64,000 bases of DNA from Escherichia coli O127:H6 str. E2348/69. Its GTDB lineage: Bacteria; Pseudomonadota; Gammaproteobacteria; Enterobacterales; Enterobacteriaceae. The DNA lies in NCBI RefSeq assembly GCF_000026545.1, contig NC_011601.1, one strand, 5' to 3'. The notes beneath the pieces were generated by a model. It was not told where the DNA came from and did not search any database. It saw only the letters and a program-made list of their open reading frames with translations. Both the position numbers and the translations under genes were made by a program. Positions 7,780 through 54,501 of the stretch are shown one piece after another (position 1 is the first letter of the stretch; each line of letters begins with the position of its first letter).

Positions 7780-9461
7780 GCCTCGTCCCTCCATGGTAGT
7801 CGTAACGTTATTCGGGTGTAACTATCAGGCTCACAGGCGACGCTTATCCCATAGTCATCGCCAAACCGTTCACGTAAACGCTTATCCACCAGATTCATCC
7901 CCAGCCCACTGGCATTGGTTACCGGTTGATACAAACCGGCATTGTCTTCGATCTCCAGCATCAAATGTTGCCCCTCACGTCGGGCGCTGATTGCCACTCG
8001 CCCTGTATCCAGCAGTTGTGATGTCCCATGTTTAATGGCGTTTTCCACTATCGGTTGCAGGGTAAACGCGGGCAATTGCTGCTGGGATAATTCTTGCGGA
8101 ATAGCAATGTTGACCTGCAACCGCGACTGGAAGCGCGCCTTTTCAATTTGCAGATAAGCGTTCACATGTTCAATTTCGTCGGCGAGAGTAACAAACTCCG
8201 AAGGCCGCTTTAAGTTTTTGCGGAAAAAAGTAGAAAGATACTGCACCAGCTGGCTGGCCTGTTCGCTGTCGCGGCGGATCACCGCTTTAATGGTGTTAAG
8301 CGCATTAAACAAAAAATGGGGATTCACCTGGGCGTGAAGCAGTTTGATCTCTGACTGGGTGAGCATCGCTTTTTGCCGCTCATATTGCCCGGCGAGGATC
8401 TGCGCCGAAAGCAGTTGCGCAATCCCCTCGCCCAGCGTGCGGTTGATTGAACTGAATAAACGGTTTTTGGCCTCATACAATTTGATGGTACCCATCACTC
8501 GCTGATTTTCACCACGCAACGGAATGACCAGCGTCGACCCCAGTTTGCATTGCGGATGCAAAGAGCAACGGTAAGGCACTTCGTTGCCATCAGCGTAGAC
8601 CACTTCACCGGTTTCAATCGCTTTTAAGGTATAAGTCGAAGAAATCGGTTTGCCGGGTAAATGGTGGTCGTCACCAATTCCGGTAAAGGCCAGCAATTTC
8701 TCTCGATCGGTAATCGCGACTGCACCAATATCCAGCTCCTGATACAGCACCTGTGCCACTTTCATGCTGTTCACTTCGTTAAACCCCTGGCGCAAAATGC
8801 CTTCCGTCGAGGCCGCCACTTTCAGCGCAGTGGCAGAAAAAGCCGAAGTGTATTTTTCAAACATCGCGCGTTTATCGAGCAATATACGCATAAACAGTGC
8901 CGCGCCGACGGTATTGGTGACCATCATTGGCGCAGCAATATTACTCACCAGACGCACCGCATCTTCATAAGGTCGGGCGATCGCCAGGATAATCAACATT
9001 TGCACCATTTCAGCGACGAACGTGACGGCACCGGCGGTAATGGGGTTAAAGACTTTATCAGTGCGCCCGCGACGGATCAGGATGCTGTGTACCATGCCAC
9101 CGAGCAATCCTTCAACGATGGTCGAGATCATGCAACTTAGCGCGGTCATGCCCCCCATCGAATATCGATGTAACCCGCCGGTCAGACCAACCAGCCCACC
9201 GACGACCGGACCGCCGAGTAAGCCGCCCATTACCGCACCTATCGCACGGGTATTGGCAATAGAATCGTCAATGTGCAACCCAAACCAGGTGCCCATGATG
9301 CAGAAGATGGAAAAGACGATGTAGCAGAGAAATTTATGCGGCAGACGAACCGTGACCTGCATTAACGGTATGAATAATGGCGTTTTACTCATTAACCACG
9401 CAATGACTAAAAAAACGCACATCTGCTGAAGCAGCAGCAACACCAGATTAAAATCGTACAT
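7776..9461 (-). CDS. btsS: LytS-type membrane sensor histidine kinase
   Basis: Multi-pass hydrophobic N-terminus followed by a histidine-kinase core; 561 aa from the Met giving [11 protein letters not shown]. Confidence 0.9.
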
Positions 9462-11297: not shown

Positions 11298-12224
11298 TTA
11301 CGCCTCCTCCAGCAGATCCTGAAAATGCAGCGTGCCGCAAGGCTCGCCCTGCGTGTTCACCACCGGCAGCACCTCGCATCCCCGCGCGACAAACAGAGAA
11401 AGCGCATCGCGTAGCGTCATCTCTTCTGCCAGCGCCTCACCTTCTGCCCGTTCTTCGCGACGCACGTAATCTGCCACGCTACGTAACGAAAGCAGGCGTA
11501 CACCCAGCTCACTACGACCAAAAAACTGGCGGACAAAATCATTCGCCGGACGAGTCAGCATCGTCAGCGGATTACCCTGCTGCACCACTTCACCGTGATC
11601 CATCAATACAAGATGTTCTGCCAGCCGTAGCGCCTCATCAATATCATGAGTGACCAGCACAATAGTGCGCCCCTGCAAACGGTGAATGCGCGTCATCTCT
11701 TGTTGCAACGCGCCACGCGTTACCGGGTCCAGCGCGCCGAATGGTTCATCCATCAGCAAGACTTGCGGATCGGCAGCCAGCGCGCGGGCCACTCCCACAC
11801 GTTGCTGCTGACCGCCGGAAAGCTGATGCGGATAACGCTCACGCAAATCCGGCTCCAGCCCCAGTAGCGCCATTAATTCGTCGATACGATCGTCGATCCG
11901 CGCCCGTGACCATTTTTGCAATTGCGGCACGGTGGCGATGTTTTGTGCCACGCTCCAGTGGGGAAACAGGCCAATAGATTGAATGGCATAGCCCATCCGG
12001 CGGCGCAACTCCAGTACTGGCAGCGAGCGAATTTCTTCTCCGGCAAAGCGGATCACCCCGCTGTCATGCTCCACCAGGCGGTTAATCATTTTCAGGGTAG
12101 TGGATTTACCGGAACCCGACGTGCCAATCAGTACCGAAAAACTCCCTTCCTGAAAATTGAGATTGAGATCGTTAACGGCTTTTTGTGCGCCGAACAGTTT
12201 GCTGACATGGCTAAATTCAATCAT
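11298..12224 (-). CDS. yehX: ABC transporter ATP-binding protein
   Basis: Walker [13 protein letters not shown] signature LSGGQQQR and Walker B LLMDEP are all present; 308 aa. Confidence 0.92.
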
Positions 12225-23853: not shown

Positions 23854-24240
23854 AAATCAGATATGGCATATAAGTTGTCAGGTCAGGAACTCGATATTTT
23901 GTGTACTTGATTTGCAAACAGCTCCGGTGTTGGTGGCGTCAAAATCGCTGAAGCGTTCCCCGAAGGCCGGGGCAGCCCACATGGATGTGGGCTGAGGGCG
24001 CGTCTTACAAGGACGTTACCTCGCGCCCGACCCAGTAGCCGAAGGGGATAAGCTGAAGGTACCGCGCAGCGGAGATTTTGTTCGCCAGAGCCCGGGGGTG
24101 CAGGGGGAGGAGGCGATTGTCCTCCCCCTGCGCGCTCCTTGCGCCAGTGGCAATATGTGGCTTAGCTCATGAAAGGAGCGCAACAAGATGATGAAGCTGA
24201 ATAAGCGATTCATTGTCTCAGATAAGCTGCGATTCCACTA

Positions 24241-44520: not shown

Positions 44521-45570
44521 ATGACGAATATCACCTTACAGAAACAACATCGTACACTGTGGCATTTTATTCCGGGGTTAGCCCTGAGTGCAGTTATCAC
44601 CGGGGTCGCCCTGTGGGGTGGTTCCATTCCCGCGGTTGCGGGTGCCGGGTTTAGTGCCCTCACCCTCGCAATCTTGTTGGGGATGGTTTTAGGCAACACC
44701 ATTTACCCGCACATCTGGAAAAGCTGTGACGGTGGTGTGCTGTTTGCCAAGCAATATTTATTACGTCTGGGTATCATTCTTTATGGCTTCCGTCTGACGT
44801 TCTCGCAAATTGCCGATGTCGGTATCAGTGGGATCATCATTGACGTGTTGACGCTGTCCAGTACCTTCCTGCTGGCTTGCTTCCTGGGGCAGAAAGTGTT
44901 TGGTCTGGATAAGCACACCAGCTGGTTGATCGGTGCCGGTAGCAGTATCTGTGGTGCTGCCGCGGTACTGGCGACTGAGCCGGTAGTGAAAGCAGAAGCC
45001 AGTAAAGTAACCGTGGCTGTTGCAACCGTTGTTATCTTCGGGACCGTCGCGATTTTCCTCTACCCGGCGATATATCCGCTGATGTCTCAATGGTTTAGTC
45101 CGGAAACTTTCGGTATCTACATTGGTTCTACTGTGCACGAAGTGGCGCAGGTGGTGGCGGCAGGTCATGCCATCAGCCCGGATGCAGAAAACGCAGCAGT
45201 TATTTCCAAAATGCTGCGCGTGATGATGCTGGCTCCGTTCCTCATCCTGCTGGCGGCGCGTGTTAAACAGCTGTCTGGGGCGAACAGCGGCGAGAAAAGC
45301 AAAATCACTATTCCGTGGTTTGCCATCTTGTTCATCGTCGTTGCCATCTTTAACTCGTTCCACCTGTTACCGCAGAGCGTGGTGAACATGCTGGTAACGC
45401 TGGATACCTTCCTGCTGGCAATGGCGATGGCGGCGCTGGGTCTGACCACTCACGTCAGCGCGCTGAAAAAAGCCGGGGCGAAACCTCTGCTGATGGCACT
45501 GGTACTGTTTGCCTGGCTGATTGTTGGTGGTGGTGCGATTAACTATGTGATTCAAAGCGTCATCGCATAA
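44521..45570 (+). CDS. yeiH: UPF0324-family inner membrane protein
   Basis: 349 aa hydrophobic ORF with AGGAGAGGG upstream. Confidence 0.88.
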
Positions 45571-45643
45571 ACCACTACATCTTGCTCCTGTTAACCCGCT
45601 ATCATTACCGTTTTCCTCCAGCGGGTTTAACAGGAGTCCTCGC

Positions 45644-46501
45644 ATGAAATACATTGGAGCGCACGTTAGTGCTGCTGGCGGTCTGGCAAATGCCGCAATT
45701 CGCGCCGCCGAAATCGACGCAACCGCGTTTGCCTTGTTCACCAAAAACCAACGTCAGTGGCGTGCCGCACCGCTCACGACGCAAACCATCGATGAATTCA
45801 AAGCCGCCTGTGAAAAATATCACTACACATCGGCGCAAATTCTTCCCCACGACAGTTATCTGATTAACCTCGGACATCCGGTTGCTGAAGCTCTGGAAAA
45901 ATCGCGCGATGCCTTTATAGATGAAATGCAGCGTTGCGAACAGCTGGGGCTTTCTTTGCTCAACTTCCACCCTGGCAGCCATCTGATGCAGATTTCAGAA
46001 GAGGATTGCCTTGCGCGTATTGCCGAATCCATCAACATTGCGCTGGATAAAACTCAAGGTGTCACCGCGGTGATTGAAAACACCGCCGGTCAGGGCAGTA
46101 ACTTAGGGTTTAAATTCGAACATCTCGCGGCGATTATCGACGGCGTGGAAGATAAATCCCGCGTCGGCGTCTGCATTGATACCTGCCATGCTTTCGCTGC
46201 CGGGTATGATTTGCGTACTCCTGCCGAATGCGAGAAAACGTTCGCTGATTTTGCCCGTATTGTAGGCTTTAAGTATCTGCGCGGGATGCACCTCAACGAT
46301 GCGAAAAGCACCTTTGGCAGCCGCGTTGACCGTCATCATAGCCTCGGCGAAGGCAATATCGGTCATGATGCGTTCCGCTGGATCATGCAAGACGACCGTT
46401 TCGACGGCATTCCGCTGATCCTTGAAACCATCAACCCGGATATCTGGGCAGAAGAGATCGCCTGGCTGAAAGCGCAACAAACTGAAAAAGCGGTGGCCTG
46501 A
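45644..46501 (+). CDS. nfo: Endonuclease IV (AP endonuclease)
   Basis: 285 aa; recognised from the AP-endonuclease family-2 sequence. Confidence 0.92.
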
Positions 46502-46504
46502 TCG

Positions 46505-47593
46505 ATGAACGACAGGGAAAAGCAGATTCTTAAAATTTTACGGCGTAACCCGCTGATTCAACAGAATGAAATCGCCGATATTCTGCAAATCAGCCGCTCA
46601 CGTGTTGCCGCTCATATTATGGATTTGATGCGCAAGGGTTTGATTAAAGGCAAAGGATATATCCTTACCGAGCAGGATTACTGTGTGGTTGTGGGTGCAA
46701 TCAATATGGATATTCGCGGAATGGCGGATATCCGTTACCCGCAAGCAGCCTCTCATCCAGGTTCTGTTCACTGTTCCGCAGGCGGCGTCGGACGTAATAT
46801 CGCGCATAACCTGGCTCTGCTTGGTCGGGATGTGCATTTAATTTCAGCTATTGGCAACGATTTTTACGGCGAGACATTACTGGAAGAAACGCGCCGCTCG
46901 GGCGTGAACGTTTCAAACTGCATTCGTCTGCATGGACACAGCACTGCAACTTATCTCGCTATCGCTAATAAGCAGGAAGAAACTATCCTGGCAATCAATG
47001 ACACACATATTCTGCAACAGCTAACGCCTCAACTGCTCAATACTTCACGGGACTTGATTCGCCATGCTGGTGTGGTGCTGGCTGATTGTAATCTCACACC
47101 TGAAGCCCTGGAGTGGGTCTTTACCATTGCTGATGAAATTCCGATGTTTGTCGATACCGTTTCCGAATTTAAAGCGAACAAAGTAAAAAACTGGTACAGC
47201 CGGATCCACACTCTGAAACCGACACAAAATGAACTGGAAATTTTGTGGGGGCAACCGATTAAAGACGACAACGATCGTATCAGAGCTGTAAATTCGCTGC
47301 ATCAACAAGGTGTTAAACGCATTTTTGTTTATCTGAAAGATGAATCTGTATTTTGCAGCGATAAGGATGGAGAACAATTTTTGCTGACCGCGCCAGCGCA
47401 TACGACAGTAGACAGTTTTGGTGCTGACGATGGTTTTATGGCGGGCCTGGTATATAGCTTTCTTGAAGGATACAGTTTCCGCGACAGCGCCCGTTTTGCG
47501 ATGGCCTGCGCGGCAATTTCACGCGCCAGCGGCAGCTTAAACAACCCTACCCTGTCTGCCGATAACGCGCTTTCATTAGTGCCAATGGTGTAA
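46505..47593 (+). CDS. yeiI: Fusion of an N-terminal winged-HTH domain to a PfkB-family carbohydrate/nucleoside kinase
   Basis: 362 aa; residues ~1-55 look like a helix-turn-helix (QNEIADILQISRSRVAAHIMDLMRKGLI); the rest contains GGVGRNIAHNLALLG and aligns with PsuK. Confidence 0.88.
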   Translation: MNDREKQILKILRRNPLIQQNEIADILQISRSRVAAHIMDLMRKGLIKGKGYILTEQDYCVVVGAINMDIRGMADIRYPQAASHPGSVHCSAGGVGRNIAHNLALLGRDVHLISAIGNDFYGETLLEETRRSGVNVSNCIRLHGHSTATYLAIANKQEETILAINDTHILQQLTPQLLNTSRDLIRHAGVVLADCNLTPEALEWVFTIADEIPMFVDTVSEFKANKVKNWYSRIHTLKPTQNELEILWGQPIKDDNDRIRAVNSLHQQGVKRIFVYLKDESVFCSDKDGEQFLLTAPAHTTVDSFGADDGFMAGLVYSFLEGYSFRDSARFAMACAAISRASGSLNNPTLSADNALSLVPMV

Positions 47594-50788: not shown

Positions 50789-50828
50789 ATTGCCGGATGC
50801 AACGCTTAATAAGGTGTACATCCGGCAA
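50789..50828. repeat. REP-like palindrome between convergent yeiL and psuT
   Basis: TTGCCGGATGCAACGCTTAATAAGGTGTACATCCGGCAA is a degenerate REP. Confidence 0.6.
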
Positions 50829-50834
50829 TGAAAC

Positions 50835-54444: not shown

Positions 54445-54501
54445 ATTTTGCGTTTGTCATCATCGGGGCAGAGATGTCTCAGCCCCGATGATGAAGAGAA
54501 A

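Follow-up and report, generated by a model that had tools for sequence, protein, structure and literature searches.

The 73-bp spacer between yeiH and nfo of Escherichia coli O127:H6 str. E2348/69 contains a stable hairpin that is real and conserved in the Enterobacteriaceae. Its 3' arm carries the Shine-Dalgarno (SD) sequence of nfo, and its loop carries the start zone of the nfo promoter. Based on the structure, on a conservation that includes compensatory changes, on the promoter elements in the loop and on the difference in the predicted energy of opening the nfo ribosome-binding site (RBS), we consider it probable, with moderate confidence, that the hairpin insulates nfo from yeiH transcription, as a terminator-derived element that would act specifically on read-through RNA. 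Below, "the window" is the whole 64,000-nucleotide stretch that was analyzed (contig NC_011601.1), and positions are counted from its first letter.

Two neighboring genes with different inducers

According to the open reading frame list and the RefSeq annotation, both genes lie on the forward strand. The yeiH coding sequence (349 aa) occupies 44521–45570, with its TAA stop at 45568–45570, and nfo, which encodes endonuclease IV (285 aa), occupies 45644–46501 and begins with the ATG at 45644; the corresponding MG1655 coordinates are 2249717–2250766 and 2250840–2251697. The gene names proposed in the first-pass annotation, made from the letters alone, were correct: of 5426 complete E. coli genomes, 5425 have the region annotated as yeiH followed by nfo, and the 401 bases around the hairpin are found once in each of these 5425, at an identity of at least 99%.

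The two neighbors respond to different stresses. In broth, the activity of the Salmonella yeiH promoter falls below detection, and sulfite turns the promoter on via YeiE (PMC12880088); nfo is a member of the SoxS/MarA/Rob regulon (PMC3709825). This difference in inducing stress provides a rationale for insulating nfo. For unstressed cells, Kim et al. (2012) reported a yeiH start at -17 and gave none for nfo. The same study placed a yeiI start inside the nfo coding sequence, at about 46247, 258 nt upstream of yeiI; that gene starts at 46505, leaving a gap of 3 nt after the end of nfo at 46501. The portion of the Adams 2021 supplementary text that was searched gives no 3' end near yeiH or nfo, an absence that says little, because yeiH is barely expressed in broth.

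A stable hairpin that buries the nfo SD

The stem begins 14 nt past the yeiH stop. Its 5' arm, CTCCTGTTAACCCGCT, spans 45585–45600 and its 3' arm, AGCGGGTTTAACAGGAG, spans 45620–45636 with a bulged U at 45626, both read on the forward strand; between them RNAfold leaves a loop of 19 nt (45601–45619). The last five nucleotides of the 3' arm (45632–45636) are the nfo SD sequence, AGGAG, 7 nt before the ATG. In the predicted fold, AGGAG is fully paired, and the inner helix, CCCGC/GCGGG, is GC-rich. The position, the arms, the loop, the SD spacing and the inclusion of the SD in the stem match exactly what had been read from the sequence in the first-pass annotation.

In isolation, the 52 nt fold into 16 base pairs plus the one bulged U, at -23.3 kcal/mol (RNAfold). 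Shuffled 52-mers average -7.7 ± 2.2 kcal/mol, none of 200 being as stable (z = -7.1). The helix is also the centroid structure when folded in a 161-nt context, where it gains an extra pair, G45584–U45637. Across both strands of the window, only 0.5% of 52-nt segments fold as stably.

We compared the region with described elements. An Rfam scan of 45300–45900 at a permissive E-value returned only two chance-level matches (E = 3.5 and 5.2), far below gathering scores, and thus no covariance model of a described RNA family (riboswitch, leader, small RNA or thermometer) matched at the hairpin. A REP or MITE repeat was ruled out: the sequence occurs in one place per E. coli genome, and the window holds no second close copy. 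No description of the nfo promoter or of the hairpin was found in the literature searched, which stopped short of the first reports of the nfo sequence and of the primary work on SoxS footprinting.

Several other structures are present in the window. Several 52-nt segments exceed the nfo hairpin in stability (-29 to -38 kcal/mol); they lie at 24089–24140 and 23953–24004, and on the reverse strand at 11767–11818, 8385–8436 and 54445–54496. The strongest contains an 18-bp stem (14 + 4 bp, with one bulge) at 24094–24138, and the last has 18-nt arms at 54457–54494. An inverted repeat at 50789–50829, with GCCGGATG…CATCCGGC, resembles a REP-type palindrome.

The nfo promoter starts transcription inside the loop

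The nfo -10 hexamer, TATCAT, lies where the 5' arm meets the loop (45600–45605, forward strand), as indicated by its conservation and by the assignment of Mendoza-Vargas 2009, which gives acccGCTATCATtacc as the sigma-70 -10 box of an nfo 5' end (PATSER 4.83; PMC2760140). That 5' end was located 29 nt upstream of the ATG by 454 sequencing of unstressed cells, with a frequency of 3 reads (Mendoza-Vargas 2009 Table S1, PMC2760140). In the window it falls at about 45615, 10 nt from the -10 hexamer, a rather long distance; the geometry of the -10 predicts 45611–45613, a placement that we infer relative to the hexamer. The published end and the -10 geometry together delimit a start zone in the loop at 45611–45615 on the forward strand. 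Among 28 aligned Enterobacteriaceae spacers, the T, A, T and last T of TATCAT are invariant, the variants being TATGAT, TATACT and TATTAT. The pattern T-A-T-n-n-T is the classic signature of a sigma-70 -10 element.

Upstream of the hexamer, TCATCGCATAAACCACTACATC (45560–45581, forward strand) is a predicted SoxS/MarA/Rob box, listed as the predicted SoxS site for nfo in supplementary file 6 of Mendoza-Vargas 2009 (PMC2760140). Within it, ATCGCATAAACCACTACAT fits the mar/sox consensus AYnGCACnnWnnRYYAAAY, as quoted in PMC3709825, at 12 of its 14 specified positions, and the box is conserved as GGCATAAACCACTACAT in many genera. It ends 18 bp before the -10, is accompanied by a poor -35 hexamer and spans about -50 to -31, positions included in the range that defines class II marboxes (PMC12052159). 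Judged by its sequence, the nfo promoter is a class II-type SoxS promoter, with a predicted box and a start in the hairpin loop. The 5' arm of the hairpin, at about -28 to -12, doubles as the promoter spacer that separates the SoxS box/-35 region from the -10.

The box also overlaps the final codons and the stop of yeiH (…GTC ATC GCA TAA…), and the motif GGCATAA is kept across the Enterobacteriaceae. Since the activator site is embedded in the 3' end of yeiH, the C-terminus of YeiH and the activator site of nfo constrain each other.

A start at about 45611–45615 places the 5' arm upstream of +1, so that it is absent from nfo's own mRNA, as both the conservation of the -10 and the three-read 5' end indicate. 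The hairpin therefore cannot form in, or regulate, SoxS-driven nfo mRNA. The proposal of translational control on top of the SoxS-induced transcript is thus not supported, with both the -10 and the mapped 5' end in the loop. The first-pass annotation had looked to an nfo start downstream of about 45620 as the finding that would tell against it; in substance this is what we see, as the 5' arm is missing from the mRNA, although the start lies at about 45611–45615 and not beyond 45620. Because nfo promoter RNA starts in the loop, yeiH is the sole source of RNA that could contain both arms, and what survives of the earlier interpretation, on the predicted layout of the two transcripts, is the suggested connection with read-through from yeiH.

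In a promoter scan of 45300–45800, no promoter-like site was found upstream of the 5' arm. The only promoter-like match of that scan, at 45627–45655, overlaps the nfo start codon and was set aside. The supplements of a MarA screen, a Salmonella MarA/SoxS/Rob/RamA study and a Cappable-seq study contain no entries for nfo or yeiH.

Two further observations concern sequence variation at the promoter. One of 5425 E. coli genomes, that of the ST80 strain Es_ST80_L1_NDM_10_2017 (locus L082), has a 2-nt TG deletion in the 5' arm, at the equivalent of 45589–45590, which shortens the stem and takes the promoter spacer from 17 bp down to 15; an error in the assembly and a promoter-down allele are both conceivable. 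Outside the Enterobacteriaceae and Erwiniaceae, a strongly conserved AATG(C/T/A)CATAATG is found about 31 nt upstream of the nfo ATG (loci L025, L034, L036, L038, L039, L043, L045, L047, L050, L052, L055, L062, L063, L067–L070, L072, L074 and L079). It resembles an extended -10 (TGnCATAAT) in which a 7-nt palindrome, ATGCCAT, is included, and these loci have no obvious SoxS-box-like sequence, which suggests that nfo may be regulated differently in the families that carry it.

Read-through RNA is predicted to hide the RBS

The two kinds of transcript differ in the predicted accessibility of the RBS. Opening the SD costs 2.7 kcal/mol in transcripts that start at 45610–45615 and 10.6–11.4 kcal/mol in RNA arriving from yeiH; for the stretch from the SD to the AUG, the predicted values are 6.8 kcal/mol (short transcript) and 12.4–13.2 kcal/mol (RNA from yeiH). 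The idea that the hairpin would occlude the nfo RBS accordingly stands for any RNA that contains both arms (about 11 versus 2.7 kcal/mol) and fails for nfo's own mRNA. In the minimum free energy fold of the short mRNA (-19.5 kcal/mol), the freed CCAGCGG of the 3' arm pairs with GCUGCUGG in nfo codons 10–12 (45618–45624 with 45672–45679), and the SD lies in an internal loop. With 14 nt between the yeiH stop and the stem, a terminating ribosome would at most fray the base of the stem.

To relate this effect to other genomes, the sequence before the predicted nfo start was compared with shuffled segments at each locus. The native upstream segment raised the RBS opening energy above at least 95% of the shuffled segments at 22–23 of 31 Enterobacteriaceae loci; at about 8 of the 31, occlusion was no better than with shuffles. 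Across the Enterobacterales as a whole, occlusion of the RBS by upstream sequence is not general, being consistent in the Enterobacteriaceae only.

Conservation and compensatory changes

We collected 80 nfo loci from Enterobacterales genomes, 68 of which have yeiH upstream. A hairpin that encloses the -10 is present in all 30 of the 30 Enterobacteriaceae yeiH–nfo spacers, with minimum free energies of -20 to -43 kcal/mol. The loop varies in length from 9 nt in Citrobacter to about 50 nt in Phytobacter, which favors a single-strand structure and disfavors a protein site of fixed spacing. Within E. coli, the region is 100% identical in 29 of 30 genomes taken from across the matches listed, and its identity is 99% or more in 5424 of 5425.

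A fixed-column MAFFT alignment (A1) was too rigid, as the helix register shifts between clades, and was replaced by a covariance-model alignment (A3). In the latter, 83.6% of cells can pair, versus 34–49% when the partners are slid. Five pairs are altered on both sides, a count reached by 15 of 500 shuffles, and nine individual cells are altered on both sides, which none of 500 shuffles reach. The covariation score is 0.111 versus 0.082 in the control, and again no shuffle among 500 attains the observed value; with related sequences and an alignment fitted to the structure, these statistics are suggestive only. The inner GC helix is paired in 93% of cases and the outer, SD-bearing helix in 72%.

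Individual clades display the compensatory changes directly. Enterobacter ENT03 has CCCGG/CCGGG, with C-G replaced by G-C, and Kosakonia has AGAC/GUCU, with A-U replaced by G-C. In Bisph1 and ESNIH1, TGTA/TACA replaces U-A with A-U, and in Shimwellia, GTCAAAC/GTTTGAC replaces U-A with C-G and fills the bulge. Citrobacter and Kluyvera have lost the outer helix and the AGGAG, and have gained a new inner helix, TATACTC/GAGTATG, keeping about -24 kcal/mol. At these loci (L004, L006, L012 and L014), no AGGAG is recognizable before the nfo ATG (…GGCGGGTTTAATTTATG), and the hairpin has moved inward to about 40 nt upstream of the ATG, where the -10, TATACT, pairs with GAGTAT. In the Erwiniaceae, the spacers are short, lack a terminator and do not consistently form an occluding hairpin, a pattern which implies that insulation is not universally required.

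Probable descent from a yeiH terminator

In other families with longer spacers (Serratia, Yersinia nurmii, Edwardsiella and Providencia), a canonical intrinsic terminator separates yeiH from the nfo promoter. The Serratia terminator reads GGCCCGCGA-TTTA-TCGCGGGCT-TTTTTG and that of Edwardsiella GCACCCTGTTAACC-TAT-GGTTAGCAGGGTGT-TTTTATTTT, with AACAGGAG as the context of the Edwardsiella nfo SD. The 5' arm of the Edwardsiella terminator, CCCTGTTAACC, contains the core CCTGTTAACC, which lies 19 nt from the yeiH stop, the same offset as in E. coli. A match of that length between the two 5' arms arose in only 0–14 of 2000 shuffles. Owing to the same offset and the shared core, the E. coli 5' arm looks terminator-derived and, from these sequences, orthologous to an ancestral yeiH terminator arm.

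The E. coli hairpin itself is no canonical intrinsic terminator. Such terminators have short loops of about 3–8 nt. In E. coli, a GC-rich stem does follow the yeiH stop, but the loop is 19 nt and no U-tract follows the stem (UCCUCGCA, 2 U in 8 nt), and a terminator scan found nothing at the hairpin. Among the 26 genera that keep the AGGAG, about 10 have T at five or more of the 8 positions that follow the stem, as in GGAGTTTTTTATG (RIT691) and GGAGTTTTTATG (Pluralibacter).

Proposed mechanism and alternatives

We suggest that the fate of nfo translation depends on where its RNA begins. RNA made from the nfo promoter would contain only the 3' arm, as part of its 5' untranslated region, leaving the SD free and nfo translated. 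RNA that starts at the sulfite- and YeiE-controlled yeiH promoter and continues past the yeiH stop would contain both arms, and its stem of -23 kcal/mol would bury the nfo SD. In such read-through RNA, nfo would be poorly translated, and the ribosome-free nfo segment may be exposed to Rho or to decay, which would uncouple Nfo output from yeiH induction. The stem may itself descend from the intrinsic terminator of yeiH, and some residual termination, or protection of the yeiH 3' end, is possible.

More tentatively, the evolutionary path might be drawn as follows, a scenario that we regard as conceivable and hold with less confidence than insulation itself. In the Enterobacteriaceae, the nfo -10 and start would have ended up within the loop of the yeiH terminator hairpin, and the 5' arm would have found a new partner in the SD region of nfo. 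Translation would thereby depend on the promoter, and the SoxS (superoxide) and YeiE (sulfite) regulons would be kept apart without a separate terminator.

The most serious competitor, which we nevertheless judge rather unlikely, is that the hairpin is chiefly a 3'-end element of yeiH, a weak terminator or exonuclease barrier, whose overlap with the SD is incidental to the squeeze of 73 bp. The positional orthology of the 5' arm with the Edwardsiella terminator arm speaks for it, as do the best conserved part of the structure being the inner helix CCCGC/GCGGG followed by TTT, the T-rich runs after the stem in about 10 of the 26 AGGAG-keeping genera (such as GGAGTTTTTTATG), and the retention of a strong hairpin in Citrobacter and Kluyvera, although the AGGAG is gone. 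It has difficulty, however, with E. coli, with its 19-nt loop, its lack of a U-tract and its empty terminator scan, and with the outer helix, which bears the SD, requires transcript beyond the inner helix and its TTT, and also has compensatory changes. A related possibility, which appears improbable, is that the hairpin is a remnant of the ancestral yeiH terminator and serves no function in E. coli today. The U-tract has indeed decayed in Escherichia, and with yeiH normally silent, selection on read-through RNA could be weak; yet a mere relic sits poorly with stems of -20 to -43 kcal/mol maintained in every Enterobacteriaceae spacer despite sequence turnover and clade-specific re-pairing, and with the near-identity of the region among E. 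coli genomes.

Two other readings seem to us very doubtful. The inverted repeat could be a DNA operator that spans the nfo -10 and start and is recognized by a dimeric regulator, as its well-conserved arms flank the core promoter, a common position for repressor sites. Depending on the genus, the arms are 9 to about 50 bp apart and yet remain complementary, the parts of the arms that are retained differ between clades, and the compensatory substitutions preserve pairing rather than the sequence of a half-site, all of which weigh against an operator. Equally doubtful is a cis-acting translational regulator in nfo's own mRNA that modulates SoxS-induced expression. The very stable stem does contain the SD, and an additional nfo start upstream of 45585, inside yeiH, remains conceivable under some condition; against it stand the location of both the conserved -10 hexamer and the mapped 5' end in the loop, the lack of a promoter-like site upstream of the 5' arm in 45300–45800, the lack of an Rfam leader or riboswitch match, and the fact that no alternative anti-sequestor structure is apparent. 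Insulation of nfo from read-through RNA thus remains the reading that we prefer.

If true, insulation by this hairpin would constitute a compact chromosomal case in which translation is set by the promoter of origin, an arrangement best known from insertion sequences. It would also explain how adjacent, co-oriented genes for different stresses remain independent with only 73 bp between them. In practice, nfo reporters and operon predictions that extend upstream into yeiH would then differ from those that start at the nfo promoter. More generally, an SD-occluding hairpin near a start codon should not be read as a regulator before the transcription start has been placed relative to its arms.

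Comparison with known systems

RNA thermometers and riboswitch expression platforms similarly pair the SD in a stable stem. These structures lie in the gene's own transcript and are switched by a signal, whereas the 5' arm of the nfo hairpin lies outside nfo's own transcript and the region has no Rfam match. Class II SoxS/MarA/Rob promoters (PMC12052159) share with nfo a forward box that overlaps the -35 region, the nfo box ending at the distance from the -10 given above. That class, however, describes a promoter and not a hairpin. To our knowledge, no other promoter of the SoxS/MarA/Rob regulon lies inside a hairpin loop.

The yeiH terminators of Edwardsiella, Serratia, Yersinia and Providencia occupy the same position, directly after yeiH, and that of Edwardsiella shares the 5'-arm sequence CCCTGTTAACC. 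They differ in having stems of 8–14 bp, loops of 3–7 nt and a U-tract, and in preceding the nfo promoter in its entirety; the stem of E. coli, in contrast, has a 19-nt loop that holds the -10 and the start, lacks a U-tract, and uses the SD region as its 3' arm.

The left end of IS200 combines a terminator against impinging transcription with a separate stem-loop that sequesters the SD (PMC4513863). As the nfo hairpin would, this end joins a block to incoming transcription with SD sequestration right upstream of its gene, which in IS200 is weakly expressed. IS200, however, employs two separate inverted repeats, with the SD stem in its own 5' untranslated region, while at nfo a single hairpin would do both and nfo's own mRNA escapes it.

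The closest parallel may be the "fold-back inhibition" of IS10/Tn10, reportedly described by Davis, Simons and Kleckner in 1985, in which the transposase gene is said to be protected from outside transcription. There, the promoter reportedly fires between the arms of an inverted repeat, so that only transcripts from outside contain both arms and have their RBS sequestered. The predicted arrangement at nfo is alike in that transcription starts between the arms and only incoming RNA would sequester the RBS. It differs in that yeiH–nfo is a chromosomal housekeeping/stress gene pair and not a mobile element, and in that the 5' arm of the nfo hairpin, known here from computation, apparently came from the terminator of the upstream gene.
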